45,550 nt of DNA from Candidatus Rokuibacteriota bacterium (GCA_016184305.1 JACPCX010000117.1:1-45550); one strand, 5' to 3'. Numbered from the stretch's first letter, positions 7,238 to 35,842 are shown. Numbers and translations: made by a program. The notes: a model not told the origin generated them from the letters alone.

Positions 7238-7316
7238 GGCTCGCTCACGCTCGCCGCCTCGCTCCGCTCGGGGGATCTCCATATTTCGCTCGCCTCGCCT
7301 CCGGCTGCGGCTCGCC
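7238..7316 (-). repeat. Repeat family B, 79-bp intergenic copy (GGCGAGCC...GCGAGCC)
   Basis: Shares GCGAGCCGCAGCCGGAGGCGAGGCGAGCG core and GGCGAGCGTGAGCGAGCC end with other copies at 30485, 32841, 33444, 35718. Confidence 0.85.
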
Positions 7317-7318
7317 AA

Positions 7319-7645
7319 TCACTTTGGAATCTCCAGCACGACGTTGCCCCGGACGACGGCCTGGCACCCGAGGCGCGAGTGGAGCGTGAGCCCCTCGGCC
7401 GTGTCGAGCCGGTCCTCCTCATCCGCCTCCATGGGGGACAGGTTGCCCTCCCCCTCGCGGACGATCACGTGGCAGGTGGTGCAGGCGCAAGCGCCCCCGC
7501 AATTGTGCTCCAGGTGGATATTGTTCGCCAGCGCGATGTCGAGGATCGAGCCCGGGCGGCCGTGGTCGGCCAGCGGGTACCTCTCCTCGTCCACCTCGAC
7601 GGTCACGTGCAGCGGCAGGAAGGTCACCTTGTGCGTCGCCATCAT
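7319..7645 (-). CDS. fdx: ISC [2Fe-2S] ferredoxin
   Basis: EHNCGGACACTTCHV...SRLGCQ. Confidence 0.93.
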   Translation of the reverse strand: MMATHKVTFLPLHVTVEVDEERYPLADHGRPGSILDIALANNIHLEHNCGGACACTTCHVIVREGEGNLSPMEADEEDRLDTAEGLTLHSRLGCQAVVRGNVVLEIPK

Positions 7646-9468
7646 TTGGACTCCAGGATCTGGTCGGCCCGCCTCGAGGCGAGCGCTCCCTTGAGCGCCG
7701 CGTCCATCATCGCCTCGGCGAGCCGCTCGGTGGCCTTGTTGAGCTCGATGGTACGCTCGCGGATCGCATCCCGGTCCTGACCGTCCCGGACCTCCCGGAG
7801 GGCCCGGAGCGCCTGCTGGATCTGCCCCAGGTCGCCCGGGCTCACGAGCCGCGCGCCCTGCGCCAGGGCCCGGTCGACATGGGTCATCACGGTGTCGGCC
7901 TCGGTCCGTGTTTCGATCAGCAGGCGGGCGTTGACGTCCTCCTCGGCGTGGGCGAAGGACTCCTCGACCATCCGAGCCACCTCGTCCTCCGTGAGGCCAT
8001 AGGTGGGCCGCACCTCGATGGATGCCTCCTTGCCGGTCCTGATCTCCCGGGCGTGGACCTGCAGGATCCCGTTGGCGTCGATCAGGAAGGTCACCTCGAT
8101 CTTGGGCATGCCGGCCGGCATGGGGTCGATGCCCGAGAGATCGAAGCGCGCCAGGGATCGGTTGTCCCGCGCCAGCTCGCGCTCCCCCTGCAGCACGTGC
8201 AGGTCCACCGCCGTCTGGCCGTCCACCGAGGTCGTGAAGATCTCCTTGGCCATGGTGGGAATGGTCGTGTTGCGCGCGATGAGCACGCTGACGACGCCAC
8301 CGAGGGTCTCGATGCCCAGTGACAGCGGCGCCACGTCCAGCAGCAGCATGCCGGTGATCCCGCCTGCCAGGATCTGCGCCTGGACCGCCGCGCCCAACGC
8401 CACCACCTCGTCGGGGTTGAGCTGGCTGTGCGGCACCTTGCCGAACAGCTCCTGCACGCGGCGCCGCACGAGCGGCACCCGCGTCGAGCCGCCCACGAGC
8501 ACCACCTCATCGATCCGGTCCGGCGTGAGCCCGGCGTCCTTGAGCGCCATGCGGCAGGGCCCGAGGGTGGCCTCGACGAGAGGGCCGATCAGCTTCTCGA
8601 CCTCCGCCCGCGTCAGCTCCCGGTGGTAGGTGAACCCCTCGAAGGGGATCGTGAGGAGGCTCCGGTCGTCGAAGGAGAGGCGGCACTTCGCCGCCTCGGC
8701 CCCGAGCCTCAGCTCCTGGCGCGCCTCCGGGTCTTGCGACAGGTCCACCCCGTGGGTCTCGCGGATATCGGCCAGCAGCCACTCCACCATCACGCGGTCG
8801 AAGTCGTCGCCGCCCAGGTGCGTGTTCCCGTTGGTGGCCAGCACCTCGAAGACCCCGTCCTTGACGCTCAGGATCGAGATGTCGAAGGTCCCTCCGCCCA
8901 GGTCGTAGACCGCGATGGTCCCCTGGGCGAGCTTCTGCAGCCCGTACGCCAGGGAGGCCGCCGTCGGCTCGTTCACGATCCGGAGAACGTCGAGGCCGGC
9001 GATCCGGCCGGCGTCCTTGGTCGCCTGCCGCTGGCTGTCATTGAAGTACGCGGGGACGGTGATGACCGCCTGCTCCAGGGGCTCCCCGAAGAAGGCCTCC
9101 GCGCGCTGCTTGAGGGCTCGCAGGACGTGGGCCGACACCTCGGGGGGCGTCACCGCGCTGTCGCCCACCTTGATGCGCACCACGTCGGCGCTCGCGAGGA
9201 ACTCGAAGGGGCAGTGGCAGAGCTCGTCCTTGATGTCGTCGTACCCTCGGCCCATGAAGCGCTTGACGGAGTAGATCGTCCGCGCGGGGTTCCGGACCAG
9301 CTGGCGACGGGCGGGCTCACCCACCAGGATCCCGTCCGGGGTATAGCCGACGATGGACGGCAGGAGGGCCCGGCCCTCGACATCGCGGATCACCCTGGGG
9401 ACGCCACCCGCGACGTACGCCACCAGGCTATTGGTCGTCCCCAGGTCAATGCCGACGATGCGAGACAT
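7642..9468 (-). CDS. hscA: Hsp70 chaperone HscA
   Basis: GIDLGTTNS, TVPAYFND, DLGGGTFD Hsp70 motifs; position between hscB and fdx. Confidence 0.92.
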   Translation of the reverse strand: MSRIVGIDLGTTNSLVAYVAGGVPRVIRDVEGRALLPSIVGYTPDGILVGEPARRQLVRNPARTIYSVKRFMGRGYDDIKDELCHCPFEFLASADVVRIKVGDSAVTPPEVSAHVLRALKQRAEAFFGEPLEQAVITVPAYFNDSQRQATKDAGRIAGLDVLRIVNEPTAASLAYGLQKLAQGTIAVYDLGGGTFDISILSVKDGVFEVLATNGNTHLGGDDFDRVMVEWLLADIRETHGVDLSQDPEARQELRLGAEAAKCRLSFDDRSLLTIPFEGFTYHRELTRAEVEKLIGPLVEATLGPCRMALKDAGLTPDRIDEVVLVGGSTRVPLVRRRVQELFGKVPHSQLNPDEVVALGAAVQAQILAGGITGMLLLDVAPLSLGIETLGGVVSVLIARNTTIPTMAKEIFTTSVDGQTAVDLHVLQGERELARDNRSLARFDLSGIDPMPAGMPKIEVTFLIDANGILQVHAREIRTGKEASIEVRPTYGLTEDEVARMVEESFAHAEEDVNARLLIETRTEADTVMTHVDRALAQGARLVSPGDLGQIQQALRALREVRDGQDRDAIRERTIELNKATERLAEAMMDAALKGALASRRADQILESK

Positions 9469-10042
9469 GCCTCTCCTCTCCCTCCCCGAGCGCGTCGCTC
9501 AAGTCATCGATCACGGTGCGCAGGTAGGCCCGGGCGGCGAGCCGCTGCTTGAACCACTCGATCAGCGCCGTGCGGTCTCCCGGCCCGCCCACGACAGCGT
9601 CCCACTCAGCGGCCCGGGCCGCGATGGCGTCCTCCTCGGCGAGCTGACGGGCCCTGAGCCGCTCGCGCTCCTCGCTGAGCCTCTGGCGGGAGACCTCATC
9701 CAGCCCTCCAGCCTTCGCCTCCTGGAGGGCTTCCTGCACCTCCATGATCTCCTCGAGGAGGTCCACCGGCGCCCTGGGCCTCGCGTCCGCCCCTTCCCGG
9801 GTCTCGCCACCGTCCTCCAGCACGATGAGGTACTCGACCCGACTGACCGGATCCCGCAGCGCCCGGTAGGCGCGATTGAGGAGGGCGGAGGCGGACAGGG
9901 CCTTGGCCTGATCCTCCTCGGACGCGCCCTGGTGGAAGTCCGGATGGTGGACGCGCGAGAGCTCGTAGAACCGGCGGCGGAGCTCCTCCGGGTCCAGCTG
10001 GAGCTTCCGCGGAAGCCCGAACACCGCGAAGTAGTCGTTCAT
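9446..10042 (-). CDS. hscB: Co-chaperone HscB
   Basis: MNDYFAVFGLPR...HHPDF (J-domain HPD)...LNRAYRALRDP. Confidence 0.92.
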   Translation of the reverse strand: MNDYFAVFGLPRKLQLDPEELRRRFYELSRVHHPDFHQGASEEDQAKALSASALLNRAYRALRDPVSRVEYLIVLEDGGETREGADARPRAPVDLLEEIMEVQEALQEAKAGGLDEVSRQRLSEERERLRARQLAEEDAIAARAAEWDAVVGGPGDRTALIEWFKQRLAARAYLRTVIDDLSDALGEGEERHVSHRRH

Positions 10043-10050
10043 GTCCTCAC

Positions 10051-10081
10051 AAAATGAGAACGGGCCCGCCGGGGCCCGTTC
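10051..10081 (-). terminator. Intrinsic terminator-like hairpin between iscA and hscB
   Basis: GAACGGGCCC-cggc-GGGCCCGTTC followed by TCATTTT on the minus strand. Confidence 0.6.
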
Positions 10082-10140
10082 CTGTTCTCCTGCTGCTGCC
10101 GGTCGGTGTCGTGCCCGACGGTTACGACACGGCCGCGCCC

Positions 10141-10467
10141 CTACGCCGAGAACGACGTTCCGCAGCCGCAGCTCGACTTGGCGTTGGGGTTGACGAAGGT
10201 GAAGCCGCCGGTCAGCCCCTCGGTGACGTAGTCGAGCGTGATCCCATTCAGGTAGAGATAGCTCTTGGCGTCGCAGAGCACCTGGACCCCGTCGATGTCG
10301 AACGTCTTGTCGTGGGGTCCCACCTCCGTGTCGAACTCCAGCGAGTACGACAGTCCGGAGCACCCTCCGCCCTTGACGCCCACGCGCAGATAGACGTTCT
10401 CGAGCTGCTGCGCCTGCATGAGCTGCTTCACCTGCTTGGCCGCCTTCTCCGTCAGTGCCAGTGCCAT
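10141..10467 (-). CDS. iscA: A-type Fe-S carrier IscA
   Basis: GGGCSG and NPNAKSSCGCGTSF. Confidence 0.95.
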   Translation of the reverse strand: MALALTEKAAKQVKQLMQAQQLENVYLRVGVKGGGCSGLSYSLEFDTEVGPHDKTFDIDGVQVLCDAKSYLYLNGITLDYVTEGLTGGFTFVNPNAKSSCGCGTSFSA

Positions 10468-10507
10468 GGGAAATCGTGCCTCCTTGCGAGCGTGAATGCG
10501 TCCGGTG

Positions 10508-10924
10508 TCAGGACGCGCCGGTTCGGGCTTCGGCTGCCGCGTTCGCCCACTTCTCCTTGTAGTCCTGGAGCGCCGCCTTGATGGCGTCCTCGGCCAGGAC
10601 GGAGCAGTGGATCTTCACGGGCGGCAGCTTGAGCTCGTTGACGATGTCCGTGTTCTTGATCTTCGCGGCCTCCTCCACCGTGCGCCCCTTCAGCCACTCG
10701 GTGGCCAGGCTGGACGAGGCGATGGCGCTGCCGCACCCGAAGGTCTTGAACTTGGCGTCCTCGATGAGCCCCGTCTGCACGTTCACCTTGATCTGGAGCT
10801 TCATGACGTCGCCGCACTCCGGCGCCCCCACGAGCCCCGTCCCCACGCCAGGGGTGCCCTTGCCGAAGGACCCCACGTTCCGGGGGTTGCTGTAGTGGTC
10901 GATGACCTTATCGCTGTATGGCAT
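10508..10924 (-). CDS. iscU: Fe-S scaffold IscU
   Basis: GAPECGDVM, FGCGSAIASSS, LPPVKIHCS. Confidence 0.96.
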   Translation of the reverse strand: MPYSDKVIDHYSNPRNVGSFGKGTPGVGTGLVGAPECGDVMKLQIKVNVQTGLIEDAKFKTFGCGSAIASSSLATEWLKGRTVEEAAKIKNTDIVNELKLPPVKIHCSVLAEDAIKAALQDYKEKWANAAAEARTGAS

Positions 10925-10957
10925 GCCGATGTGCCTCCTGTGACGTCGGTGGCGCCC

Positions 10958-12184
10958 CTACTCCGCTTTCCAGTGCATGGACTTCAGGTTGATCCCTTCC
11001 TTCGCCATCTCGTAGAGCGGCGACATCTCCCGGAGCCGCTGGATCGCCTCGACGGCCCGCTGCGCCACGAAGTCCACCTCTTCCTCGCTGGTGAAGCGGT
11101 GGAGCCCGAAGCGGATCGAGGAGTGCGCCAGCTCGGCGTCCACCCCGAGGGCGGAGATGACGTACGAGGGCTCGAGCGTCGCCGAGGTGCAGGCGGAGCC
11201 CGAGGCCAGGGCCGCTTCCTTGTTGAGCCCCATCAGCACCGACTCGCCTTCCACATAGGAGAACGAGATGTTCAGGTTGTGCGGAAGCCGTTTCTCGGGG
11301 TGGCCGTTGAGGTACGCCTCCTCCACCTTGGAGAGGATCTGGTCCTGGAGACGGTCCCGGAGCGCCGTGAGCCGCTGGCTCTCCTCTGGCATGAGCTCCC
11401 GGCACAGCTCGGCCGCCCGGCCGAAGCCTACCGCGAGCGGCACCGGCACCGTGCCCGACCGCATGCCGCGCTCATGCCCGCCGCCGTCGATCATGGGAGA
11501 GATCCGGACCCTGGGGTTCTTCCGTCGGACGTACAGCGCCCCGATCCCCTTGGGGCCGTAGATCAGGTGCGCCGTGCAGGACAGAAGATCCACCCCTATC
11601 GCCTCCACGTCCACGGGGATCTTGCCGACCGCCTGGGTCGCATCGGTGTGGAAGACGATGCCCTTCTCCTTCGCCAGCCGGCCGATCTCGGCGATGGGCT
11701 GGATCGTGCCGATCTCGTTGTTGGCGAACATCACCGAGACCAGGATGGTCTTCGGGGTGAGCGCGCTCCGGATCGCCTCCACGTCCACGAGGCCGTCGGT
11801 GCCCACCTTGACGTAGGTGACCTCGAATCCCTGCCGCTCGAGCCGCTTGCAGACGTCCAGCCCGGCGCGCTGCTCGATCACGGTGGTGACGATGTGGTTG
11901 CCCTTCTCCCGGTACATCTCGGCCACGCCCTTGAGCGCCAGGTTGATCGACTCGGTGCCGCCGGAGGTGAAGACGAGCTCCTTCGGATCCCGGGCCCCGA
12001 TGAGCCTGGCGATCTGCTCCCGGGCCCGGTCCAGCCCGGCCTCCGCTTCCCAGCCGAACGGGTGGTTCCGGCTCGCCGGGTGGCCGAACTTCTCGGTGAA
12101 GTAGGGGATCATCGCGTCCAGCACGCGGGGATCCACCGGAGTCGTGGACTGGCTGTCCATGAAGATCGGCAGCTTCGGCGTCAT
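10958..12184 (-). CDS. iscS: Cysteine desulfurase IscS (PLP-lysine position appears substituted)
   Basis: FTSGGTESIN, RSGT, ASGSACTSATLEPSYV, LREMSPLYEM; start 12184 or 12193. Confidence 0.9.
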   Translation of the reverse strand: MTPKLPIFMDSQSTTPVDPRVLDAMIPYFTEKFGHPASRNHPFGWEAEAGLDRAREQIARLIGARDPKELVFTSGGTESINLALKGVAEMYREKGNHIVTTVIEQRAGLDVCKRLERQGFEVTYVKVGTDGLVDVEAIRSALTPKTILVSVMFANNEIGTIQPIAEIGRLAKEKGIVFHTDATQAVGKIPVDVEAIGVDLLSCTAHLIYGPKGIGALYVRRKNPRVRISPMIDGGGHERGMRSGTVPVPLAVGFGRAAELCRELMPEESQRLTALRDRLQDQILSKVEEAYLNGHPEKRLPHNLNISFSYVEGESVLMGLNKEAALASGSACTSATLEPSYVISALGVDAELAHSSIRFGLHRFTSEEEVDFVAQRAVEAIQRLREMSPLYEMAKEGINLKSMHWKAE

Positions 12185-12205
12185 CGGAGTCATCTCCTGT
12201 CTCGT

Positions 12206-12643
12206 CTATGTCGTCGTGCTCAGCGCAGCGACCGGAAGGATCGGATCGGCGCCCAGCTCGGCGAGCGTCATGGTGTCCAGGAGGTGGCTGATGCTCGCCT
12301 GGATCTTCTCCACAGGGCGTCGCAGGTTGCAGCGCACGTACTGCGGGCAATCATCCGCCGTCACGCAACCGACGATCTCGACCGGCCCCTCGAGAGCCCT
12401 GATCACCTGCCCGACCGTGATGTGGTTCGGGTCCCGGCCCAGCAGATAGCCCCCCTTGGGGCCGTTGTGGCTCACGATCAGCTTCCGCTTCGCCAGGCGC
12501 TGGAGGATCTTGGCCAGGAGCTCGGGTGGAATCTTGAACTCCTCGGCGATCCGCTTGGTGCTGACGGCTTCCTCATCGGCCCGGGCGGCGATGTAGTGGA
12601 TGGCCATCAGCCCGTAATCCGCCTTCTTGGTGAAGCGAAGCAT
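12206..12643 (-). CDS. iscR: Rrf2-family regulator IscR
   Basis: GPKGGY wing; C-x5-C-x5-C; first gene of the isc operon. Confidence 0.88.
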   Translation of the reverse strand: MLRFTKKADYGLMAIHYIAARADEEAVSTKRIAEEFKIPPELLAKILQRLAKRKLIVSHNGPKGGYLLGRDPNHITVGQVIRALEGPVEIVGCVTADDCPQYVRCNLRRPVEKIQASISHLLDTMTLAELGADPILPVAALSTTT

Positions 12644-12666
12644 GTTCTCTCCTGCCCTCTGTCAGT

Positions 12667-12731
12667 ATCCGACCTTTTAGATCCCCGACTCTTCTAGTCG
12701 GATTCTCCCGCGCTCATGGGCCCCCTGTCAA
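12667..12731 (-). promoter_or_regulatory. iscR promoter with IscR type-1-like operator
   Basis: TTGACA(12726-12731)-18 bp-GAGAAT; palindrome CCGACT-cttct-AGTCGG (GACT-N5-AGTC) plus an adjacent imperfect CCGACC-tttta-GATC site. Confidence 0.7.
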
Positions 12732-12758
12732 GCCTCATCTTTCCGGCTGGTTGCCGGG

Positions 12759-13745
12759 TTAACTCCATGCCTCCCTGAGACGCCGGGCGGCCTCCTCGGG
12801 GGGGGTTTCGTTGACGTAGATTCCCCCCACTCGGGTCAGCCGTTCGGGCTGCGGGGTCACCTCGATATGCCAGTGGTAGTCATCGGCCACCGTCGCCCAC
12901 TCCCCCGGCAGCACCTTGGCGTTCCGGTTGGGGGCGGTGTTGAGGGTCATCTCGAAGGACGGGTCCCCGAGCACCCGTGCGAGCGTCCGGAAGTAGCCCC
13001 CCAGCAGCGAAGCCAGGTCAGCGACGCTCTCGGGCATCAGGGCCTCCTCATAGGAGCAGGCGTGCTGGCGCGGCAGGATCCACGCCTCGTGGGGGGCGCG
13101 GGCCGCGTAAGGCACCAGCGCCACGAAGTGGGGCGTCTCCCAGATCACGCGAGCTTCGTCGGCGGTCTCCTGGCGAATGATGTCGCAGTAGACGCACCGC
13201 CGCTTGTACTGGAAGTACTCGCGGGCCTCGGTGAGCTTGCGCCGGACCTCGTCGAAGATGATCGGGATGGCGATCAAGCGGGAATACGGATGGGTGATGC
13301 GGGAGCCGGGCTGCCGGTGGCGCCTGGTGATGAGGATGTCACGGATGGCGAGGTCCCGCTTGAGATCCCGGATCCGCTCCGCATACATCCAGAGAACCTG
13401 CTCCCACTGCGCCCTGGGCATGGTGGCAGGCGTGTCCTCGTGGCGCGGGCTCTCGACGATCAGCTCCGTGGCGCCGCGTGGGGAGATCTTGTCGTACATG
13501 CCGACGCCTTCGCGCGCCAGGTCGAGCTCGATGCGGAAGTACGGGTCGGCCTCGGGTATCACGCGCACCGACCAGCCCAGGCCGTCCGAGGCTCCGTCGT
13601 CCTTGCGGTAGGCGCTGATCTCGGGCGGCGTCAGCCCCTCGTTCCCGGGACAGAAGGGGCATGCCTGACCGACGGGTGGAGAGCCGCCCGAAGGACGCAC
13701 GAGCACCCACTGCCCGCGAGTCGGATCCTTCCTCAAATCGCTCAT
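12759..13745 (-). CDS. GalT-like (HIT superfamily) protein with degenerate active site
   Basis: MSDLRKDP, CPFCPGNE, VRVIP, ELIVESPRH, CVYCD, YHWHIE; the HPHxQ motif reads HPYSR. Confidence 0.85.
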   Translation of the reverse strand: MSDLRKDPTRGQWVLVRPSGGSPPVGQACPFCPGNEGLTPPEISAYRKDDGASDGLGWSVRVIPEADPYFRIELDLAREGVGMYDKISPRGATELIVESPRHEDTPATMPRAQWEQVLWMYAERIRDLKRDLAIRDILITRRHRQPGSRITHPYSRLIAIPIIFDEVRRKLTEAREYFQYKRRCVYCDIIRQETADEARVIWETPHFVALVPYAARAPHEAWILPRQHACSYEEALMPESVADLASLLGGYFRTLARVLGDPSFEMTLNTAPNRNAKVLPGEWATVADDYHWHIEVTPQPERLTRVGGIYVNETPPEEAARRLREAWS

Positions 13746-13755
13746 GACCTCCGCC

Positions 13756-13784
13756 ACCTTAGAGAACCCCCACCGGCAAGTCAA
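13756..13784 (-). promoter_or_regulatory. sigma70 promoter of the galT-like gene
   Basis: TTGACT-17 bp-TAAGGT. Confidence 0.55.
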
Positions 13785-13859
13785 GGATGCGGACGTCCAA
13801 ACGGGATCCGCCGAAGCCCAAGCCGGTTTCCATGTATCTTAAGAGCCGAGGAGGAGCCA

Positions 13860-14099
13860 ATGGCCGACCCTGCCGTGGTGGTGTACTCGAGCCCGACCTG
13901 AGTCCCCTGCCGTCAGGCGAAAGAGTTTCTTTCGTCTCAGGGCGTGGCGTTCCGGGATGTCAACGTGATGGAGGACGCGGACGCGCGGCAGGACCTGATC
14001 CGGCTCACGGGACAGATGGCCGTGCCGGTGATCCTGGTGGGAGAGCAGGTGGTGCGCGGCTTCGACAAGCCGCGGCTCAGGGCGCTCCTCGGGATCTAG
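13860..14099 (+). CDS. Glutaredoxin/NrdH-like selenoprotein (UxxC), missed by the ORF track
   Basis: GAGGAG RBS; MADPAVVVYSSPT-U(TGA 13899-13901)-VPCRQAKEFLSSQGVAFRDVNVMEDADARQDLIRLTGQMAVPVILVGEQVVRGFDKPRLRALLGI*; SECIS-like hairpin downstream. Confidence 0.9.
13905..13942 (+). promoter_or_regulatory. Candidate bacterial SECIS of the glutaredoxin
   Basis: Upper stem AGGCGAAAGA/UCUUUCGUCU with GUU loop 23 nt after UGA; lower stem CCCUG/CAGGG. Confidence 0.75.
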
Positions 14100-14106
14100 C
14101 GCTCGC

Positions 14107-15359
14107 TCAGTTGCCCTTCTCGTCGCCTCGCGGGCATCCACCTTCTCGTAGACCAGCGCGAGGTTGTAGAGGGCCCCCGTGTGGCGGGCGTCCTGCTCCA
14201 CCACCTTGCGGTACTCGGTGATGGCGTCCTGGTAGAGGCCCTTGTCCTCGTACACCTCGGCCAGCCCCATCCGCGCGTCGACGTAGCCCGGGTCGAGCTC
14301 GATGGCCTTCTTGTAGGCGGTCACCGACTCGTAGTAGAGCCCCTTCTCGGCGTAGTAGATCTTCCCCAGGCTCACGTGCACCTTGGGATTCAGCGGGTTG
14401 TGCTGAAGCGCCTTCTGATACGCGCTCACCGCGCCGTCCACGTCCGCCTTCGCCGCCCGCGCGTCGCCGAGGCCCACGTGGGCCTCGGCGAAGAACGGGC
14501 GCAGCTCGATGGCCTTGGCATAGGCCTCCACCGCCTGATCGAAGAGCCGCCGCGGGGCCGTCAGGAAGAGATCGCCCAGCGACTTGAAGGGCTCGGGGAA
14601 GGTCGGGTCCTGCTGGGTCGAGGCCCGGAACTGCGCGGCGGCCTTCCAGCGATTGCCGAGGGCCTGGTGGACCAGGCCCAGCGAGTACTGGGCCACCACG
14701 AACTGGGCATCGGTCTCGAGGGCACGGGCCAGGAGCTCGACGGCTGCTTCGTTGCCCTCCTGGGTGGCGCGGGCCGCGGCCAGCTGCGCCCGCACATACG
14801 CCTCCCAGGCGCGCGGGGAGGCGGTGGGAGCCGCGGTCTTCTGCAGGCGCGCCGCCTCGGCATCGGTCACCGGAACCTTGAGGGCCCGCGCATAGGCGAG
14901 CGGCAGGGCACGGAGCCGATCGGGCAGCATCCCCTCGGCCACGGGCTGCGCCTCCAGCGCCAACCGCTCGGCCCTTTCCCCCCTCAGCTCGATGAGTCGC
15001 GGTTGGATGGAGAGGTCACCGGACACGCGGCGCACCTCGCCATACAGCGTCACGTCGGCGCGAAGGGTGCGCGCCGCCAGGAGCGCCGCCTGCTCGTCCC
15101 AGGCCTCCGGCTGCGGGAGCTGTCGGAGGCGCTGCCTGTCGATCTGGACGAGGGCCGGGAGGGTGACCAGCGCCAGGCTCAGCGACTGGGCCACGCTCTC
15201 CCCCAGCCACTGCTCCTCCCGCCCCAGATCCACCGCGACGAACGGAAGGATGAGGACGGTGCGCGACTTGGCCAGCGCCGGGGCGGCGCCCGCCAGCAGC
15301 ATCGCCGCCACTGCCACTGCGAGGATGCCCGCGCTAGACCGCATCTCGTGGGCTTGCAT
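14107..15359 (-). CDS. TPR-repeat protein with N-terminal TolB_N/CsgG-like region; 3' end apparently frameshifted
   Basis: Signal peptide; several TPRs (AVEAYAKAIELRP, AYQKALQHNP, AYKKAIELDP); probable native end ...DEKGN-TGA (14107-14109) is out of frame, so the ORF reads on to 13839. Confidence 0.75.
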
Positions 15360-24789: not shown

Positions 24790-24922
24790 CTAGCAGGCCG
24801 CTGAAAAAGGCCCATCTGCTGCGTTGGCGCCCTCGGCCGCACGCTCAACGTACAGAGAGTACGCCTCGCGTGCGGCCGTCGGGCGCCGCCTTGCATCTGG
24901 ACCTTTTTGAGCGGCCTGCGGG
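24790..24922 (-). mobile_element. MITE-like element family A, copy 1 (no nested insert)
   Basis: Terminal inverted repeats GCAGGCCGCT(G/C)AAAAAGG...CCTTTTT(G/C)AGCGGCCTGC; homologous to 30416 and 35628 copies. Confidence 0.85.
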
Positions 24923-28186: not shown

Positions 28187-28307
28187 GAAATCCCCCTCAC
28201 GAGCGTCGTGGATGACGCCCGTTGAGATGCCCACTCACGCGATCGGGATTCGATACTCGGTCACATTGGCGGGAGCGATAGGCGGGGCGGACTTGAATCG
28301 AGGACGC

Positions 28308-29387
28308 CTATGCGTGGACGGCGATCTTCGCCTCTTCGGTCACCTCGCCGATCTCCCAGCATGGCTCCCCACGCCGAGCGAAGCCCTCGATCACGGCGCT
28401 CCGGCGCTCTCGAGGAACCGAGAAGAGGAGTCCCCCGGAGGTCTCGGCCTCGAAGAGGAGTCCAACGAGCGCCTCCGGCACCGAGGGATCGATGGCGAGC
28501 CGTCCACTCTCGCCGAGGGTGTGCTCCACGTGGCGCCGGTTGCGCTTCATGCCGCCGCTCCAGTGCCCCTTCTCGGCCAGGACCAGGGCGCCCGGGAGCA
28601 GCGGCAGGTCCTTCGCGCGCAGCGCGATGCCGGCACCGGAGGCCTCCACCATCTCGGCGGCGTGGCCGAGAAGGCCGAAGCCGGTGATGTCGGTGGCCCC
28701 GCGCACGCCCACCTCCTGCGCCACCTCCGAGGCCGCGCGGTTCAGCCGGAGCATGCTCTCGATGGCCTCGTCGAGCACCGCGGGATCGCAGGCATCCGCC
28801 TTCGCGGCGGTCGCGATCACGCCGGTCCCCAGGGGCTTGGAGAGAAACAGGCACTCGCCGGCGCGCAGCCCCCCCTTGATGAAGATCCTCGAGGGGTGCA
28901 CCCGCCCGGTGACGCACAGCCCGTACTTCGGCTCGGCATCCACCACGGTGTGGCCGCCCGCGATGACGCCACCGGCCTCGCGCACCTTGTCCGCTCCCCC
29001 GCGGAAGATGGCCGCGATGGTGTCCTGCGGGAGCTCCCGGGGGAAACCTGCCACGTTGAGGGCGAAGAGCACCTGCCCGCCCATGGCGTAGACGTCCGAC
29101 ATGGAGTTGGCCGCCGCGATGGCGCCGTAGAGGTACGGGTCGTCGACGATGGGCGGGAAGAAGTCCACGGTCTCCACCACCGCAACCTCGTCGCTGATGC
29201 GGTAGACCGCGGCGTCGTCGCTGTGCCCAAGCCCCACGAGGAGGTCGGGGGGCTCCTCCTGCTTGAGCCCCCCCAGCACGTCCCGGAGATCCCCGGGACC
29301 CATCTTGGAGGCTCAGCCAGCGCAGGCGGCATAGCTGGTGAGGCGGATCTCCTTCCCGCTGCGCGGCGCTGGCATCGGCGTGTCCAT
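28308..29387 (-). CDS. selD: Selenophosphate synthetase (selenide, water dikinase), itself a selenoprotein
   Basis: IRLTSYAACAG-U(TGA 29313-29315)-ASKMGPG in frame; DDAAVY, TVDFFPPIVDDP, SDVYAMGG, GGHT, TDITGFGLLGH, ETSGGLL. Confidence 0.95.
29280..29299 (-). promoter_or_regulatory. Candidate SECIS of selD
   Basis: GUCCCGGG-GAUC-UCCGGGAC hairpin starting 13 nt after UGA; loop starts with G, 21 nt from UGA. Confidence 0.7.
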
Positions 29388-29437
29388 GGTCTCCCTCGGC
29401 CTCGTGATGTTTGGATGCCGAGAGCGCGGGGAACGGT

Positions 29438-30340
29438 TCAGTCGCGCTCGGCCGACTCGGCATCCAGGAAGACCCGGAAGGCCTCGGCCAGCGGGGACCG
29501 GCTGCGGTCCCTGTGGGTCACCACGTGGAATGCGCGGGTCACGCTCAGGTCCTTCACGCGGAGACCCCAGAGGAGGCCGTGCCGGCACTCCTCCTCCACG
29601 GCGCGCCTGGAGAGGACCGAGATGCCGACGCCCGCCTTGACAGCTTGCTTGATGGCCTGCGTCGAGCCCATCTCCCCCACGATCCGGAAGGCATCGAGAC
29701 GCAGATCGGCGGCGGCGAGCGCCGCTTCCAGCGCCGCGCGCGTCCCCGACCCTCGCTCGCGGATCAGGAGGGGCTCGGCCCTGAGCTCCTCGAGGGTCAC
29801 CTGGGTGCGGCCGTGCCACGCATGGCCGGCAGGCACCACGACGACCTCCTCGTCGGGCATCAGCTCTCGGTACTCCACCGCCCGGTGGGGCAGGCGGGCG
29901 CCGACGACGCCGAGCTCGGCCTTCCCCTCTACCACCCAGCCCACGACGGCCTGGCTGTCGCCGATCAGGAGCGTGATGGAGATCTCGGGGTACTTGTCCT
30001 TGAAGCGGCCGATGAGGGGCGGCAGGACGTACTCGCCGGGGATCGTGCTCGCGCCGATGAGCAACCCGCCGCTCATCTTCCCCTGGAAGCTGTCCAGCGC
30101 CTGGCGCGCCTCACGCTGGAGTGCGAGCATGCGGCTCGCGTAGGAGACCAGCAGCTCTCCGGCGCGCGTCACCGCGGCCCCGCGTCCGAGGCGATCGAGC
30201 AGCCGCACTCCGAGCTCGTCCTCCAGCGTGCGGATGTGCTCCGACACCGTGGGCTGCGTGAGATGCAGGGCCTCGGCCGCCCTCGAGAACGAACCGAGCT
30301 CGGCGACCTTGACGAAGATCTCGAGCTGGCGGAGGTCCAT
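29438..30340 (-). CDS. LysR-family regulator (selenium-metabolism-associated type)
   Basis: MDLRQLE...SFSRAAEALHLTQPTVSEHI; GASTIPGEY; RERGSGTR; immediately upstream of selD. Confidence 0.88.
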   Translation of the reverse strand: MDLRQLEIFVKVAELGSFSRAAEALHLTQPTVSEHIRTLEDELGVRLLDRLGRGAAVTRAGELLVSYASRMLALQREARQALDSFQGKMSGGLLIGASTIPGEYVLPPLIGRFKDKYPEISITLLIGDSQAVVGWVVEGKAELGVVGARLPHRAVEYRELMPDEEVVVVPAGHAWHGRTQVTLEELRAEPLLIRERGSGTRAALEAALAAADLRLDAFRIVGEMGSTQAIKQAVKAGVGISVLSRRAVEEECRHGLLWGLRVKDLSVTRAFHVVTHRDRSRSPLAEAFRVFLDAESAERD

Positions 30341-30350
30341 GACGGAACTC

Positions 30351-30379
30351 AGTATAGGGGCCGCTCCGACCACTGTCCA
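30351..30379 (-). promoter_or_regulatory. Near-leaderless promoter of lysR-selD
   Basis: TGGACA-17 bp-TATACT, 10 nt before ATG. Confidence 0.65.
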
Positions 30380-30415
30380 GCCGGAGCGCGGGGACAAGCA
30401 CGAGGCCCGAGGTCC

Positions 30416-30606
30416 CCCGCAGGCCGCTCAAACAGGTCCAGATGCAAGCGGCGAGGGAGGCGACGGGCGAGGCGTACTTCGCTTGGCGAGCCGAGCCGGA
30501 GGCGAGGTGAGCGGATCCGGAGATCCGGGCGAGCGTGAGCGAGCCACGTTGAGCGAGGAGCGACCGAGCCAACGCCGCAGATGGGCCTGTTTGAGCGGCC
30601 TGCTAG
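30416..30606 (+). mobile_element. MITE-like family A copy 2 with nested family B (30485-30545)
   Basis: GCAGGCCGCTCAAACAGG...CCTGTTTGAGCGGCCTGC-TAG; terminal CTAG coincides with the lpdA stop. Confidence 0.85.
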
Positions 30607-31988
30607 CGCAACAGGCTCTCGGCGGCCTCCATGAGGCCCTCGGATAGCGTGGGATGCGCGTGGATGGTCGCGGCGACATCCTCGGCCAGGAGCGCGTTCT
30701 CGACGGCCAGCGCGCCTTCCGCGATCAGCTCTCCGGCGCCGGGCCCGACGATCCCGACGCCGAGGACCCGGCCCGAGGTCGGGTCGATCACGAGCTTCGT
30801 CAGTCCGTCCGAGCGGCCCAGCGTGGCGGCCCGGCCCGAGGCTGCCCACGCGAACTTCCCGATGCGCACCTCGCGCCCGGCCGCCTGGGCCTCATGCTCG
30901 GTCAGGCCGCACCACGCCACCTCGGGATCCGTGAAGACGACCGCCGGCACGGCTCGATTGTCGAAGGCCGCCGGGCGCCCCGCGATGGCCTCGGCCGCGA
31001 CCTTGCCCTGGCGCATGGCGCGGTGGGCCAGCATGGGCTCGCCCGTGACATCCCCCACGGCATAGATCCGCGGGTCTTCCGTCCGGCAGCGGTCGTCGAC
31101 GGGAATCACCCCGCGCGCGTCCGGGCGAACGCGCGTGGCTTCGAGCCCCAGCCCGTCGCTCTGCGCCCGGCGCCCCACGGCCATCAGCACGCGGTCGAAC
31201 ACCATGGCGGCCCGGCCCTCGATGCGCGCCTCGACGACGGCTCCGCTGTCCACGAGGCCGGCCACGCGCGCTCCCAGGTGGACCTCGGCGAACAGCTTCT
31301 CCACACGGCGGGCCAGCGGCTGGACCAGATCGCGATCGACTCCAGGCAGGAGCCCGTCCATCATCTCCACCACGGTAACCCGGCTGCCGAGGGCGGCGTA
31401 CACCGCGCCCAGCTCGAGGCCGATGTACCCGCCGCCGATCACGAGGAGTCGTTCGGGGACATCAGGCAGCTCCACCGCCGCCGTGGAGTCCATGATGCGT
31501 TCGCTGCGCGCCGCGAGGCCCGGAAGCATGGCGGGCCGCGACCCGGTGGCGACGATGGCGTGGGCGAAGCGGATCTTCTGCGGCTCGTCCCCCTCGACCC
31601 TGAGTCCGCGCGAGCTCTCGAACACGGCGCGCCCGCCGACCACGTCCACGCCCTTGCCTTTCGCCACGGCCGCCAGCCCCCGCGCGAGCCGCCCCACGAC
31701 CCGCTCCGTCTTCCATGTGCGCAGGGCATCCAGCGCGATCCGTGGCTCGCCGAAGTCCACCCCGAGCTCCCGCGCGCGCTCGGCCTCCGAGATCAGTCCC
31801 GCGACGTGCAGCAGCGCCTTGGACGGGATGCAGCCCTCGTGCAGGCAGACACCGCCGAGCCGCTTGCCGGCATCCACGACGACGGCCTCGAGCCCCAGCT
31901 CCGCGGCGCGGAAGGCCGCCGAGTACCCGCCCGGCCCCCCGCCGACCACGGCCATGTCCACCTCGCGCACGAGATCGCCCATGACCAT
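30603..31988 (-). CDS. lpdA: Dihydrolipoamide dehydrogenase
   Basis: GGGPGGY, GGVCLHEGCIPSK, GGGYIGLE, IHAHPTLSE; start 31988 or 31982. Confidence 0.95.
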   Translation of the reverse strand: MVMGDLVREVDMAVVGGGPGGYSAAFRAAELGLEAVVVDAGKRLGGVCLHEGCIPSKALLHVAGLISEAERARELGVDFGEPRIALDALRTWKTERVVGRLARGLAAVAKGKGVDVVGGRAVFESSRGLRVEGDEPQKIRFAHAIVATGSRPAMLPGLAARSERIMDSTAAVELPDVPERLLVIGGGYIGLELGAVYAALGSRVTVVEMMDGLLPGVDRDLVQPLARRVEKLFAEVHLGARVAGLVDSGAVVEARIEGRAAMVFDRVLMAVGRRAQSDGLGLEATRVRPDARGVIPVDDRCRTEDPRIYAVGDVTGEPMLAHRAMRQGKVAAEAIAGRPAAFDNRAVPAVVFTDPEVAWCGLTEHEAQAAGREVRIGKFAWAASGRAATLGRSDGLTKLVIDPTSGRVLGVGIVGPGAGELIAEGALAVENALLAEDVAATIHAHPTLSEGLMEAAESLLR

Positions 31989-32049
31989 TGAGCAGAGGAC
32001 TCCTCGCGCGGTTACCCGGGGAGACGACGCAGCATCACGGCGCGCCGCA

Positions 32050-33429
32050 TCACAGCCCCAGCAGCAGCTGGTCGGGGTGCTCGAGGCGCCGCACGATCTC
32101 CGAGGCGAAGCGGGCACCGTCGGCGCCGTCGGCCACGCGGTGGTCGAAGGTGAGCGACAGCGGCAGCATGAGGCGCGGGACGATCTGGCCCTCGCGCACG
32201 ACGGCCTCCTCCCGCGCCCGCGCCACTCCGAGAATCGCGGCCTCGGGATAGTTGATGATGGGGATGGCACCGGTCCCGCCCAGGGCGCCGATATTGCTGA
32301 TGGTGAAGGTGCCGCCGCGCAGGTCCTCGATGGTGGCCTTGCCGTCGCGCACGCGCTGGGCCAGGGCGCCCAGCTCGCGGGCGATCTCCATCACGGGCTT
32401 CCGGTCCACGTCGCGCAGCACGGGAACGATCAGCCCGCGCTCGGTGGCCACCGCCACGCCCAGATGGTGGTAGCGCTTCAGGATCAGCTCGCCGGCCGCC
32501 GCGTCGAGGCTCGCGTTGAACTGCGGATGCGCCCGGAGCGCCAGCGCCGTCGCCTCGATGAGGAAGCTTGTGAGGGTGAGCGTCACGCCTTGCTCACGAG
32601 CGGCCTCCAGGTTCCGGCGAATGAGAGCGTCGAGCTCCGTGATGTCCGCGCGATCGAAGTGGGTGACATGCGGGACCTGGGTGGCGGACAGCGTCATGCG
32701 GTCGGCGATGGTGCGCCTCAGATGCGAGAGCGGGGCGCGCTCCACCGGCCCCCACCGCTCGAAGGCCGGCAGCGGCGGGGGCTCGAGGCCGACCGTGGCG
32801 AGCGGCTTCGCCGCGGGGCGCGCGGGGGCGGGCGAGGGTCCGCCTCCGGCTGCGGCTCGCTCCCTCGCTCCGCTCGGGGATTCTCCATCTCCGCTCGCCT
32901 CGCCTCCGGCTGCGGCTCGCTCCCTCGCTCCGCTCGGGGATTCTCCATCTCCGCTCGCCTCGCCTCCGGCTGCGGCTCGCACATCCACTTCGGTGACGCG
33001 GCCCGCGGCGCCGGTGCCTCGCACGCCACGGAGATCCACGCCCAGCTCGCGGGCGAGGCGCCTCGTCGCAGGTGTCGCGGGAACGGGTGCCCCATCGTGC
33101 GCGGGCGCGGCCGCAGCTTCGCGGGTCGCCGCACCCGTGGGCCCGAGCCCCGGGGCCGGCGGCGCCTGAGCGGGGCGGCCAGCCACCTCGTCCGCGTCGG
33201 CGAAGGTGACGAGGACCTCGCCGACCCTGACCGTCTGGCCCGGCCGCACGTGGATCTTCTCGATCCGGCCCGCCATCGGCGAGGGAATCTCGACCTGCGC
33301 CTTGTCGGTCTCGACCTCCAGGAACGGGGCGTCCTCGCGGATCAGGTCACCCTCGGCGACCAGCACCGTGACGATCTCGGCCTCGGTGAGGCCCTCTCCC
33401 AGATCGGGCAGCACGAATCGCCGCGCCAT
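32050..33429 (-). CDS. pdhC: 2-oxoacid dehydrogenase E2 (dihydrolipoamide acyltransferase)
   Basis: LPDLGEG...ETDKA lipoyl domain; ATPATRRLARELGVDL; DHRVADG. Confidence 0.92.
   Translation of the reverse strand: MARRFVLPDLGEGLTEAEIVTVLVAEGDLIREDAPFLEVETDKAQVEIPSPMAGRIEKIHVRPGQTVRVGEVLVTFADADEVAGRPAQAPPAPGLGPTGAATREAAAAPAHDGAPVPATPATRRLARELGVDLRGVRGTGAAGRVTEVDVRAAAGGEASGDGESPSGARERAAAGGEASGDGESPSGARERAAAGGGPSPAPARPAAKPLATVGLEPPPLPAFERWGPVERAPLSHLRRTIADRMTLSATQVPHVTHFDRADITELDALIRRNLEAAREQGVTLTLTSFLIEATALALRAHPQFNASLDAAAGELILKRYHHLGVAVATERGLIVPVLRDVDRKPVMEIARELGALAQRVRDGKATIEDLRGGTFTISNIGALGGTGAIPIINYPEAAILGVARAREEAVVREGQIVPRLMLPLSLTFDHRVADGADGARFASEIVRRLEHPDQLLLGL
32841..32980 (-). repeat. 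Perfect 60-bp tandem repeat (2.33 units) of family B inside pdhC
   Basis: 32841-32900 equals 32901-32960, plus a 20-bp partial unit; encodes RAAAGGEASGDGESPSGARE twice. Confidence 0.95.
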
Positions 33430-33443
33430 GGTCTTGTCCTTAT

Positions 33444-33474
33444 CCGCTCGCCTCGCCTGCGGCTGCGGCTCGCC
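33444..33474 (-). repeat. Short family B copy between pdhB and pdhC
   Basis: GGCGAGCCGCAGCCGCAGGCGAGGCGAGCGG. Confidence 0.8.
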
Positions 33475-33476
33475 CT

Positions 33477-34457
33477 TCAATAGGCCAGCGTCTCGCGGCA
33501 GGCGGCCGCGACGCGCGCCGCGTCCGGGATGTGCACCCACTCGCGGGCGAAGCCCACGAAGGGAACGTCGTAGGCCGTCACGCGGCGCACCGGCGCCTCC
33601 AGGGACAGGAAGGCCCCCTCCATGATGCTGGCGGCGATCTCGGCCCCGGGGCCGAAGCTCCTCGAAGCCTCATGCACGACCACCGCGCGGCCGGTTTTCT
33701 GGACGGAGGCACTGAGGGTCTCGCGGTCGAGCGGCGAGACGGTGAGGAGGTCGATGACCTCCACCTCGACGCCATCCTCCTCCCGCAGCACCCCGGCGGC
33801 CTCGCGCGCGACGCGCAGCATGGCTCCGTAGGCGATGAGCGTGAGGTCCCGTCCCTCCCGGTCGATCCGGGCGCGCCCGATGGGCATGGTCTCGATCTCG
33901 TCCGGCACCTCTTCCTTGGCGGCGTGGTAGAGCGCCTTGGACTCGAAGAAGATGACGGGATCCGGGTCGCGGATAGCGCTGGCCAGGAGCGCGCGCGCAG
34001 TGCGCGGCCCCGAGGGGATCACCATCTTGAGACCGGGAATGTGGGCGTAGAACTGCTCCTCGCTCTCGGTGTGATGTTCGAGGGCCCGCACCCCGCCGCC
34101 ATAGGGCATCCGCAGCACCATCTGGCAGTGGAAGCGCCCCTGGGAGCGCGCCCGGTAGCGGGCCGCGTGGTTCTCGATCTGGTGGAAGCACTGGAAGGCG
34201 AAGCCCGAGAACTGGATCTCGCAGATCGGCTTGAGCCCGTACAGCGCCATGCCCACCGCGGTCCCGATGATCGCGGCCTCCGCCAGCGGGCTGTCGATCA
34301 CGCGGGTGCCTCCGAACTGACGGTGGAGATCCTCCGTGACGCGGAAGACGCCGCCGTCCACCCCCACGTCCTCGCCGATGATCACCACCCCGTCGTCGCG
34401 CTCCATCTCCTGGAGCAGGGCGAGGTTCAGCGCCTTGACCATGTTCAGCTTGCCCAT
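33477..34457 (-). CDS. pdhB: 2-oxoacid dehydrogenase E1 beta
   Basis: GEDVGVDGGVFRVT, DSPLAE, EIQFSGF, EHHTES. Confidence 0.93.
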   Translation of the reverse strand: MGKLNMVKALNLALLQEMERDDGVVIIGEDVGVDGGVFRVTEDLHRQFGGTRVIDSPLAEAAIIGTAVGMALYGLKPICEIQFSGFAFQCFHQIENHAARYRARSQGRFHCQMVLRMPYGGGVRALEHHTESEEQFYAHIPGLKMVIPSGPRTARALLASAIRDPDPVIFFESKALYHAAKEEVPDEIETMPIGRARIDREGRDLTLIAYGAMLRVAREAAGVLREEDGVEVEVIDLLTVSPLDRETLSASVQKTGRAVVVHEASRSFGPGAEIAASIMEGAFLSLEAPVRRVTAYDVPFVGFAREWVHIPDAARVAAACRETLAY

Positions 34458-35590
34458 CGGCTCGTCTTCCTCTGGCCGCGCATGGGCGTCGGCAGCGGGC
34501 GCTCCTCGTCCACCGGGCGCGGCGGATCGGCGCCCAGCCGCTCGCGGAGCTCGGCGCGCTCCGCCTCCAGGTGTGCCGGCCGCTCCGCGAAGACGTGATC
34601 GAAGATGGTCAGGGGATCGGCTTCCGCCATCGTCTCGAAGCGCTCCACGGCCCGGGCGATCTCCGCGTCCACCTGCGCCTCGAGGCCATCGTCCAGCAGG
34701 TTCTTCTTCTCGAGGTAGGCGCGCGCCCGGGGGAGCGGGTCCTTCCGCTCCCACGCCTTCACTTCCTCGTCGGAGCGGTAGCGCGTGGGATCGTCGGCGG
34801 TGGTGTGCACGCCCAGCCGGTAGGTCACGCACTCGATGAGCGTGGGGCCCTCCCCGTCGCGCGCCCGCGCCACGGCCTCGCGGCTCGCCGCGTACACCGC
34901 CAGGAGGTCGTTGCCGTCCACCTGGATGCCGGGGAAGCCGTAGCCGAGAGCCTTCTGTGCCAGCGTGGCCGAGTGCGTCTGCTTCTTCAGCGGCAGGGAG
35001 ATCGCCCACTGGTTGTTCTGGACGACGAACACGGCGGGCACGTGCCAGACCCCCGCGAAGTTCAGCGCCTCGTGGAAGTCCCCCTCTGAGGTCGCCCCGT
35101 CCCCGCAATAGGCCATGACGACCACGTCGTCGCCGCGATACTGGGCGGCATAGGCAAGCCCCACCGCATGAGGGAGCTGGGTGGCCACGGGGATCGTGAT
35201 CGGCAGGTCGTGCTGGTCCGGCGCGGGCTGGCCGCCCTCGAGCCGCCCGGCGAAGAGGCAGAGCAGCTTCTCGATGGGCCAGCCCCGCCAGAGCATGGCC
35301 GCCGTCTCGCGGAAGGACGGGACCATCCAGTCCGTGTTGCGGAGGGCGAAGATGCTCCCGATCTGCGCCGCCTCCTGCCCCTTGATCGGGGCGAAGGTGC
35401 CGATCCGGCCCTGGCGCTGAAGCCGGACCATCCGCTCGTCGAGGCGGCGGCCCAGCACCATGGCACGGTACAGGCGCTTGAGGTCATCCGGCGGGATGTC
35501 GGGCTCGAGGGCCGTGTCGAGATTGCCCTCGCTATCGAGGATGGACAGGTACTCGATCGTGAACCGGGGCTCGATCGGCGTCCTCGGCAT
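34445..35590 (-). CDS. pdhA: Pyruvate dehydrogenase E1 alpha
   Basis: LQRQGRIG, GDGATSEGDFHE...NN (TPP motif), HTTADDPTRYR. Confidence 0.92.
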   Translation of the reverse strand: MPRTPIEPRFTIEYLSILDSEGNLDTALEPDIPPDDLKRLYRAMVLGRRLDERMVRLQRQGRIGTFAPIKGQEAAQIGSIFALRNTDWMVPSFRETAAMLWRGWPIEKLLCLFAGRLEGGQPAPDQHDLPITIPVATQLPHAVGLAYAAQYRGDDVVVMAYCGDGATSEGDFHEALNFAGVWHVPAVFVVQNNQWAISLPLKKQTHSATLAQKALGYGFPGIQVDGNDLLAVYAASREAVARARDGEGPTLIECVTYRLGVHTTADDPTRYRSDEEVKAWERKDPLPRARAYLEKKNLLDDGLEAQVDAEIARAVERFETMAEADPLTIFDHVFAERPAHLEAERAELRERLGADPPRPVDEERPLPTPMRGQRKTSRWAS

Positions 35591-35627
35591 GGCGTTGCCC
35601 CTGTCTCAGCGCCGGCGCGCGATGCCC

Positions 35628-35842
35628 CTAGCAGGCTGCTGAAAAACCCGCAGGCTGCTCAAAAAGGTCCAGATGCGAGGCGGCGCCCGACGGCCGCACG
35701 CGAGACGTACTCCGCTTGGCGAGCCGAGCCGGAGGCGAGGCGAGCGGACCCGGAGATCCGGGCGAGCGTGAGCGAGCCACGTTGAGCGTGCGGCTGAGGA
35801 CGCCGTACCTCCGCAGATGGGCCTTTTTCAGCGGCCTGCTAG
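35628..35842 (+). mobile_element. MITE-like family A copy 3, doubled left end, nested family B (35718-35778)
   Basis: CTAG-CAGGCTGCTGAAAAA-ccc-GCAGGCTGCTCAAAAAGG...CCTTTTTCAGCGGCCTG-CTAG; CTAG at both ends. Confidence 0.88.

Follow-up and report, generated by a model that had tools for sequence, protein, structure and literature searches.

The stretch of DNA analyzed here (hereafter the window) is a 45,550-nucleotide (nt) contig, C18, of a metagenome-assembled genome (MAG) from Candidatus Rokuibacteriota (GCA_016184305.1, JACPCX010000117.1:1-45550). This genome, G000, comprises 3.2 Mb in 239 contigs, with 70% G+C and a completeness of 88.8%. The window carries a short purine-rich repeat, which we call B, at five loci: one in the gap between a ferredoxin gene and iscX, two within copies of a miniature inverted-repeat transposable element (MITE A), one in frame within a gene for an E2 acyltransferase, and one just upstream of the latter gene. 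All five are present as recognized in a first-pass annotation, which proposed that B spreads independently by entering TT^A sites without target duplication, either in the manner of HUH or repetitive extragenic palindromic (REP) elements or through RNA. The sequence observation was right, but the transposon-like mechanism finds no support. Our analysis suggests that B is probably an interspersed minisatellite of Rokubacteria, specific to this lineage, that behaves like the interspersed repetitive units of mycobacteria (MIRUs). In these terms, B adds a new family to a familiar type of junction repeat and does not represent a new way of jumping.

The copy adjacent to iscX (positions 7238..7316, minus strand, profile match E 2e-8) consists of one 60-nt unit and a second 3′ module, 79 nt in all, and occupies the space separating the ferredoxin stop codon (7319-7321) from the iscX ATG (7235-7237). 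The junction reads TGATT-B-ATG, matching the ATT-B-ATG context described earlier, and the flanking genes were assigned by Pfam as Fer2 and Fe-S_assembly. The E2 gene harbors a perfect array of 2.3 units of 60 nt, 100% identical to one another (32841..32980, minus strand, located by tandem alignment and Pfam). Upstream of it, a truncated copy of 38 nt containing only the 5′ module (33437..33474, minus strand, E 7e-4) sits between the E2 start at 33429 and the stop codon of the preceding open reading frame (ORF), a TGA that lies 2 nt ahead of B. The orthologous spacers of three relatives (23 nt in G001, 6 nt in G002 and 3 nt in G008) are all without this module. The two remaining copies (30485..30545, E 8e-17, and 35718..35778, E 3e-15, both plus strand) are 61-nt “capped” forms nested at the apex of a MITE A copy. 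Because these two are passengers carried by a single MITE subfamily, and one other locus is a truncated unit, the five loci do not represent five independent events.

A 20-nt core, AGCCGGAGGCGAGGCGAGCG, matches six times at the five loci when up to two mismatches are allowed, and in none of 100 shuffles. The complete unit is ~60 nt long (observed range 57-63 nt) and occurs in one to at least three copies per site. It is composed of a conserved 5′ module (GGCGAGCCGCAGCCGGAGGCGAGGCGAGCGGA), a variable center that is frequently ATGGAGATCCCC, and a 3′ module that is either CGAGCGGAGCGAGG or the cap GCGAGCGTGAGCGAGCC, with the center and the 3′ module varying in sequence and length. The sense strand is rich in G and A, with a purine fraction of 0.67-0.72 and a G/C ratio of 1.6-1.9. 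There are no stop codons in any of the six frames of the 60-nt unit, and the cap brings one TGA. Capped copies start with GGCGAGCC and end with GAGCGAGCC, or GCGAGCC; these termini are direct and not inverted, as first reported, and are simply the phase of the tandem unit. The right ends are ragged: some units are truncated, some arrays have an incomplete last unit, and the 3′ module comes in two kinds. Many arrays finish in a partial unit (for example, GGCGAGCCGCAGCC) before native sequence resumes. Such ends argue against a transposon with defined termini. Tandem periods of 61 and 62 nt also occur, and thus an ORF that runs through an array does not always remain in one phase. In six folds covering both strands of three copies, neither strand was more stable than its shuffles (z -0.95 to +1.71). 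The terminal inverted repeats by which a MITE is recognized are absent from B, although its carrier MITE A has them, and Rfam at gathering thresholds gave no matches in the whole window.

An nhmmer profile derived from 35 full copies yields 79 matches to B at E<1 in G000. Approximately 35 of these are the 61-nt capped form, which is always located at the apex of MITE A, and the rest merge into 32 loci, six of them in a second family, MITE C, and 26 of them free. The free copies, which have no MITE arms beside them, comprise one to at least three tandem units that directly follow the stop codon of a gene and run in the same direction as the gene. A co-oriented ORF of 90 to 500 codons with a third-position G+C content (GC3) of 0.80-0.99 ends no more than 20 nt from B at 15 of the 26 free loci. 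This count falls to 14 after correction by Pfam, in which the long co-oriented ORF at C38:3275 was revealed to be a shadow frame and was dropped. Similarly, one of 20 loci sampled in the relative G003 (98% complete) is MITE-borne, a stop codon is found 0-10 nt upstream of B at 18 of the other 19, and 12 of these 19 free loci have an ORF of the kind just described.

The orientation of B relative to its neighbors was examined by taking, for both flanks and both strands, the longest open stretch and comparing it with Pfam (92 stretches from 23 loci). By this measure, B is exclusively sense at 18 loci and exclusively antisense at two; no locus is mixed, and three have no Pfam match. When the three window loci (Fer2/iscX, E2) are added, B is sense at 21 of 23 informative loci. 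Orientation calls based on the best GC3 frame or on GC1-GC2 were unreliable, in that E2, MutL/MiaA and TsaB were mis-called, and these were replaced by the Pfam-validated flanks. As a control, 22 MITE-borne copies were analyzed in the same way, and the 18 informative ones have 11 sense versus 19 antisense flanks (11/30). The lack of a sense bias among nested copies indicates that the bias belongs to the free copies, and not to the sequence or the method.

Comparisons with relatives, among which G001 to G003 are congeneric with G000, reveal that B copy number differs among G000-G003 at all five junctions compared. At fdx-iscX, one unit is present in G000 and in G001 (where GGCGAG follows TAG directly, with no TT) and at least three are present in G002. 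The ~1.5 units of G003 are fused through the native GGAGATCCCC into the ferredoxin frame and end in ATGA on iscX. At the same junction, B is absent from G006, which has an unrelated 42-nt spacer, and from G008, in which stop and start overlap (GTGA). Upstream of sucC there are two units in G000, three in G001, one in G003, and none in G002 (another spacer) or G006 (7-nt spacer), and the tsaB-rimI junction has three units in G000, one in G001 and two in G002. Between a kdsA-like gene and a SIS-CBS (kdsD-like) gene, G000 and G001 have a single unit, and none is found in G002 and G003 (both with the 13-nt spacer CGGGAGGCGCCTG), G006 or G008. The E2 linker holds 2.3 units in G000 and at least 2.3 units, up to the end of the contig, in G001, with none in G002, G003, G006 or G008. 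Lastly, the mutL-miaA junction is occupied in G000 by an array fused to both genes and in G003 by 2.3 units of a 52-nt variant located after TAG, and in G006 B is absent and the genes overlap (GTGA). Empty orthologous sites, those of G006 and G008 among them, do therefore exist.

No target duplication is seen in any empty/filled comparison, whether at fdx-iscX, sucC, C168:15651 and E2 or at the sites in MITE A and MITE C, which upholds this part of the earlier description. At the sites compared, however, the native spacer is replaced by B rather than split by it. Several of the native sequences resemble B. The native spacer CGGGAGGCG agrees with the CCGGAGGCG of B at eight of nine positions, and the ends of the ferredoxin and MutL genes carry GGAGATCC(C), which is identical to the B center and is the exact place where this center is fused in G003 and G000. 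In the window, GGAGATCC is part of the ferredoxin 3′ end at 7322-7345, and a comparison of ferredoxin and mutL 3′ ends among the relatives showed that the ferredoxin end of G008, GTGGAGATCCCCGAGTGA, matches the B center over GGAGATCCCC(C)GAG. This likeness of gene ends to B may be due to chance, to a target preference, or to the origin of B from such ends.

Where an array is in phase with its host gene, it is predicted to be read as part of the protein. The E2 array encodes RAAAGGEASGDGESPSGARE x 2.3 in the linker of the acyltransferase, starting immediately beyond the E3-binding domain (residues 116-151) and ending well before the catalytic domain (229-457), as delimited by Pfam. The E2 genes of G002, G003, G006 and G008 have a native Ala/Pro linker instead, and both junctions of the array fall in B-like Ala codons. 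The C terminus of a TsaB-like protein is extended through three B units in the same reading frame as that used in E2. At C30:6531-6708 (minus strand), an array joins mutL and miaA of G000 in a single 847-codon open frame without an intervening stop codon. In this arrangement, MutL lacks its last codons relative to G003 and G006, and the first or only start candidates for MiaA are located within B. Contigs from three other studies pass from unique E2 sequence into the array for 45-71 nt at the low-coordinate side and 27-28 nt at the other side. Among contigs from four studies, none extends across the E2 array and no joint omits a single 60-nt unit, and these data are therefore uninformative on copy number within populations.

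The changes in tandem copy number, the replacement of spacers, and the B-like stretches at junctions fit a MIRU-type minisatellite better than a transposon. In the mechanism we propose, arrays would expand and contract through slippage or unequal recombination. New sites would be seeded by recombination or template switching at short B-like stretches, such as the Shine-Dalgarno (SD)-like GGAGGCG, GAGATCC at gene ends, runs of Ala codons, and CGTTGAGCG in the MITE, with no dedicated transposase taking part. Sense copies might persist because they are harmless to an operon, being G-rich and unstructured, with SD-like GGAGG or GAGG, often an ATG, and all frames open. Antisense copies might be removed because they would place a C-rich, Rho-attracting, anti-SD stretch into the mRNA.

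Several observations weigh against this minisatellite model. Two free loci are antisense, namely C38:3275 and C168:14706, the latter between pyrG-like and kdsA-like genes. The sharp left end of B hugs the stop codon even where a spacer of at least 30 nt separates it from the next start (C123, C36), which is not predicted by unaided recombination. The resemblances at junctions amount to a handful, and GCGAG-like strings are common in a GC-rich genome. Similarly, GAGATCC occurs within 60 nt upstream of two of 26 arrays against ~0.4 expected, which is a weak enrichment. The filled and empty states of the MITE both occur in two genera, and this fits entry and loss of B alike. Only half of the evaluable loci have an overlap of stop and start codons that would couple neighboring genes. 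Finally, all counts are lower bounds because G000 is 88.8% complete in 239 contigs and the contigs of the relatives break at B repeats.

A more novel reading is that B, rather than being merely tolerated, is directed in the sense orientation to sites just 3′ of stop codons by some process linked to transcription or translation, and is afterward reused as a ready-made part. For example, RNA-templated or R-loop-primed copying could start at the SD-like GGAGG. As a portable SD sequence and ATG within an ORF-neutral bridge, B could rewire operon junctions, lengthen the E2 linker, and fuse MutL to MiaA, and in the apical position, as a C-rich loop, it could make a hairpin MITE act as a 3′-end signal. 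We regard this proposal as unlikely. A related idea, which we judge improbable to a slightly lesser degree, is that B is kept and spread by selection for a task in cis, either as a cassette for translation initiation or coupling or as the site of an RNA-binding protein that recognizes its four GGA motifs. Such a role would be in keeping with the sense orientation at 21 of 23 loci, the placement directly after stop codons, the MiaA start candidates confined to B, and the precedent of MIRUs as described in PMC12548453. Moreover, stop-start overlaps (-4 or -1) between the array-wide ORF and the downstream start, in the form of ATGA or TGATG, are found at nine of 18 evaluable loci versus five for two wrong frames taken together. 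By our binomial arithmetic on this crude count, the excess has a p value of ~0.02, which constitutes support but not proof. Clear examples are the array upstream of sucC, with ATGA at both the upstream stop and the downstream start, and C168:15651, with ATGA and TGATG. However, the same junctions in relatives work without B, through spacers of 3-13 nt or overlapping stop and start codons. In addition, the copy number is free to range from zero to at least three, the overlap layout is missing at half of the evaluable loci, and the center and 3′ module are variable in sequence and length.

Less probable still is an autonomous short mobile element that enters TT^A without duplication and is moved in trans by an HUH enzyme (a REP-associated tyrosine transposase (RAYT) or TnpA) or through an RNA copy. 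Such an element could lack target duplications and inverted termini and would leave empty orthologous sites, as observed, and repeated site-specific entry might explain why B is found at the same MITE apex position in two genera while the left junctions differ. The genome also contains one Y1_Tnp gene and two RVT_1 genes, and TT precedes GGCGAG at eight of 21 evaluable free starts in G000 and five of 19 in G003, or 13 of 40, far above the ~2% expected from base composition by our own arithmetic. Nevertheless, the TT^A target does not hold up: TT is missing at 27 of the 40 starts and at the isc ortholog of G001, the bases between the stop codon and GGCGAG vary (TT, TG, TC, T, CC, none or longer), and the base after B is variable and not generally A. 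The ragged right ends found genome-wide are among the outcomes named in advance as damaging to this idea, but the other, a lack of empty orthologous sites, did not materialize. Spread of the HUH or REP type also finds no support, since B does not fold and so offers no hairpin to the enzyme. The sole Y1_Tnp gene, which has an accompanying helix-turn-helix and is RAYT-like (299 aa, C13:34758-35081, L027:961-1860), is bracketed exactly by its own 20-nt inverted repeat GGGGTCAGGTCTTGCAATCC, unrelated to B, on a contig with no B match. No B copy adjoins either of the two plain RVT_1 genes (C113, C58), the nearest being 12 kb away, and no B is present on the contigs of the two IS110 genes. Thus, the candidate transposase and reverse transcriptase genes exist, but none is linked to B, and the replacement of native spacers is not the interruption that such an element would cause. 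The remaining alternative, in which MITE A is the source of B as one of its internal segments and free copies are fragments of decayed MITEs, is the least probable of all and is close to refuted. Although 35 of the 79 matches are MITE-borne, and capped 61-nt free copies (C10:21263 and units in C76) are built like the nested form, the free copies have no adjacent MITE arms and contain the fuller unit. Of 68 genera, 26 contain the 5′ module, compared to three of 23 for the MITE apex, and B also occurs at two other positions in an unrelated MITE family. The view of B as a repeat family of its own, put forward in the first-pass annotation, is therefore retained.

The comparison of B with MIRUs rests on layout and description rather than on sequence, and the two belong to different phyla. 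MIRUs are described as inserting at start codons with a -4 overlap (PMC12548453, citing Supply et al. 1997, Mol Microbiol 26:991). MIRUs share with B a short unit, in the range of roughly 40-100 bp, that is single or tandem and forms no hairpin, a position at gene junctions in operons with the orientation of the flanking genes, an open frame able to overlap the stop and start codons of its neighbors, and a copy number that differs between relatives. In contrast to MIRUs, B has its anchor at the upstream stop codon instead of the downstream start, has the overlap layout at only nine of 18 loci, and also occurs in frame within proteins and as a MITE passenger.

Other known repeats share some of these features. 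REP sequences, bacterial interspersed mosaic elements (BIMEs) and REPINs are imperfect palindromes tied to a flanked RAYT gene; they are extragenic, often after stop codons within transcription units. B resembles REP and BIME elements in its extragenic location after stop codons and in the module mosaics that it forms with MITE A and MITE C, but it has no fold, and the one RAYT-like gene of the genome is flanked by other repeats. Rickettsia palindromic elements are palindromes of ~100-150 nt that lie in frame in protein genes. Like them, B is tolerated inside ORFs and adds a peptide segment (the E2 linker, the TsaB-like C terminus and the MutL-MiaA bridge), but B is non-palindromic, tandem and mainly intercistronic. 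Pneumococcal BOX elements are modular, with a variable number of boxB units, and form hairpins. B has in common with BOX and with bacterial minisatellites, or variable-number tandem repeats (VNTRs), a modular makeup and tandem units that vary between close relatives. It differs in its dispersal to dozens of loci and its strong sense bias, as well as in lacking the hairpins of BOX.

Rokubacteria are abundant uncultured bacteria of soil and groundwater and, to our knowledge, are known only from assemblies. The dozens of junction copies of B break contigs, as at the B sites where the G001, G002 and G003 assemblies end. Because of these breaks, and because predicted genes become longer or fused through B, the repeat is relevant to assembly, annotation and strain typing, where the arrays could serve as natural VNTR markers. 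B also offers a second, independent lineage in which to ask how MIRU-type repeats reach gene junctions without the features of a transposase and why they are so strongly sense oriented, and its in-frame copies illustrate how repeat DNA turns into a protein linker.

With up to two mismatches, the B 5′ module is present in 12 of 31 relatives and in 103 of 251 genomes of the phylum (26 of 68 genera), or 101 of 249 when the unpublished G105 and G234 are left out. It is carried by 99 of the 158 genomes in the family to which the window belongs and, among eight other families of the class, by none of 68 genomes. A reversed-pattern control had one match in all 251 genomes. In other genera, arrays built on the 5′ module reach up to seven units and have a period of 44-47 nt (module plus CTGTGAACGTGGCGGT), a shorter unit type of the B family, as at G008:C6:124477-124769 (L001) and in G100, G104, G107, G118, G121 and G129. 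An exact 30-mer of B occurs in 37 stretches of public records, of which 33 are titled Rokubacteria or Methylomirabilota and none is mycobacterial. The remaining four are three stretches of one MAG labeled Verrucomicrobiia and one stretch of a MAG labeled Nitrosocosmicus (records L126, L129, L132 and L128). In these records the 30-mer is partly in arrays with a 42-nt period, and it lies on contigs of 128-402 kb in the former MAG and on one contig of the latter. These occurrences reflect either mis-binning, mis-labeling or transfer. One narrow literature search on Rokubacteria intergenic repeats turned up no published description of B.

MITE A, the carrier of the nested copies, is ~150 nt when empty and ~215 nt when filled, has long inverted arms and terminates in CTAG on either side. 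Its ends look like the product of TA insertion into CTAG, which is the habit of IS630-type elements. Among 46 paired copies, 25 have B, 20 do not, and one has only the last 24 nt of B, always in the same place at the apex. When 51 left ends were counted independently, 26 were filled, 19 were empty, five lacked a right end, and one had its right end far away. None of these 51 left ends pairs with a right end at the length of an insertion sequence, and hence no autonomous partner of MITE A was seen in the assembly. The nesting of B within a MITE is borne out. Filled copies read GTACTCCGCTT-B-ACGTTGAGCG, and empty apices, in which GTACTCTCTGT abuts ACGTTGAGCG, form a small perfect hairpin. The 5-6 nt to the left of B are CCGCTT-like in every filled MITE versus CTCTGT-like in every empty one, which indicates that the event was not a simple insertion between T and A. 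B presence and the right-arm variant, scored by eye on the alignment, occur in all four combinations (filled 10/15, empty 15/5), and this points to exchange between MITE copies.

A pattern search for the filled right junction gave 30 matches in G000, 51 in G001, 21 in G002, four in G003 and 13 in G006. The empty apex gave 24, 36, 44, 12 and 73 matches in the same genomes and two in G009, and the apex is found in three of 23 genera among the 31 relatives. A restriction of the filled MITE to one genus was ruled out by the 13 nested copies in G006. Nested copies in G006, and part of those in G003, have the free-type 5′ module and different left-junction bases. Nesting is consequently either old or recurrent. 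The wider distribution of B than of the MITE apex favors entry of B into the MITE as the likelier polarity. In MITE C, which is ~150 nt with the ends GTGCCGGGCCAA...TTGGCCCGGCAC, often CTAG, there are zero, one or two B copies at two further positions that are found with and without B. Copies with B lie at C193:16415-16690, C197:24355-24630 and C94:7600-7800 of G000, and empty ones at C141:10944, C132:4096, C103:3109, C98:1898 and C10:12526. Both families have the apex motif GAGGCGTAC...GTACGTTGAGCG, and the modules of MITE A, MITE C and B appear to compose a BIME-like mosaic.

A further 66-nt tandem family (CGAAGAGGCCCAACCGCAACCCG...) fills the guaA spacer at C168:38700-38990, where the B profile has no match. 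This family is distinct from B, and the genome therefore has at least two unrelated families of junction repeats.

Three copies of MITE A lie in the window. The copy at 35628..35842 (plus strand; fold and alignment) is a filled, 215-nt long hairpin with CTAG at both ends, and its DNA fold of -66.8 kcal/mol (z -5.81) was equaled by none of 200 shuffles. The copy at 30416..30606 (plus strand; alignment) is a filled, inner-arm variant. Both read ...CGCTT-B-ACGTTGAGCG, in agreement with the CTT-B junction originally noted for these copies. The copy at 24790..24921 (minus strand; alignment) has no B and an empty apex, GAGGCGTACTCTCTGTACGTTGAGCG, and its outermost left-end segment is missing. The empty site first described is indeed present there, with GTACTCTCTGT directly before ACGTTGAGCG, but it is not clean because the 5-6 nt on its left differ from those of filled copies. 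The terminal CTAG of 30416..30606 contains the TAG stop codon of a minus-strand dihydrolipoyl-dehydrogenase-like gene, whose Pyr_redox domains lie at 30606-31505 on the minus strand. In both filled copies of the window, the right-hand CTAG provides the TAG stop codon of a minus-strand gene.

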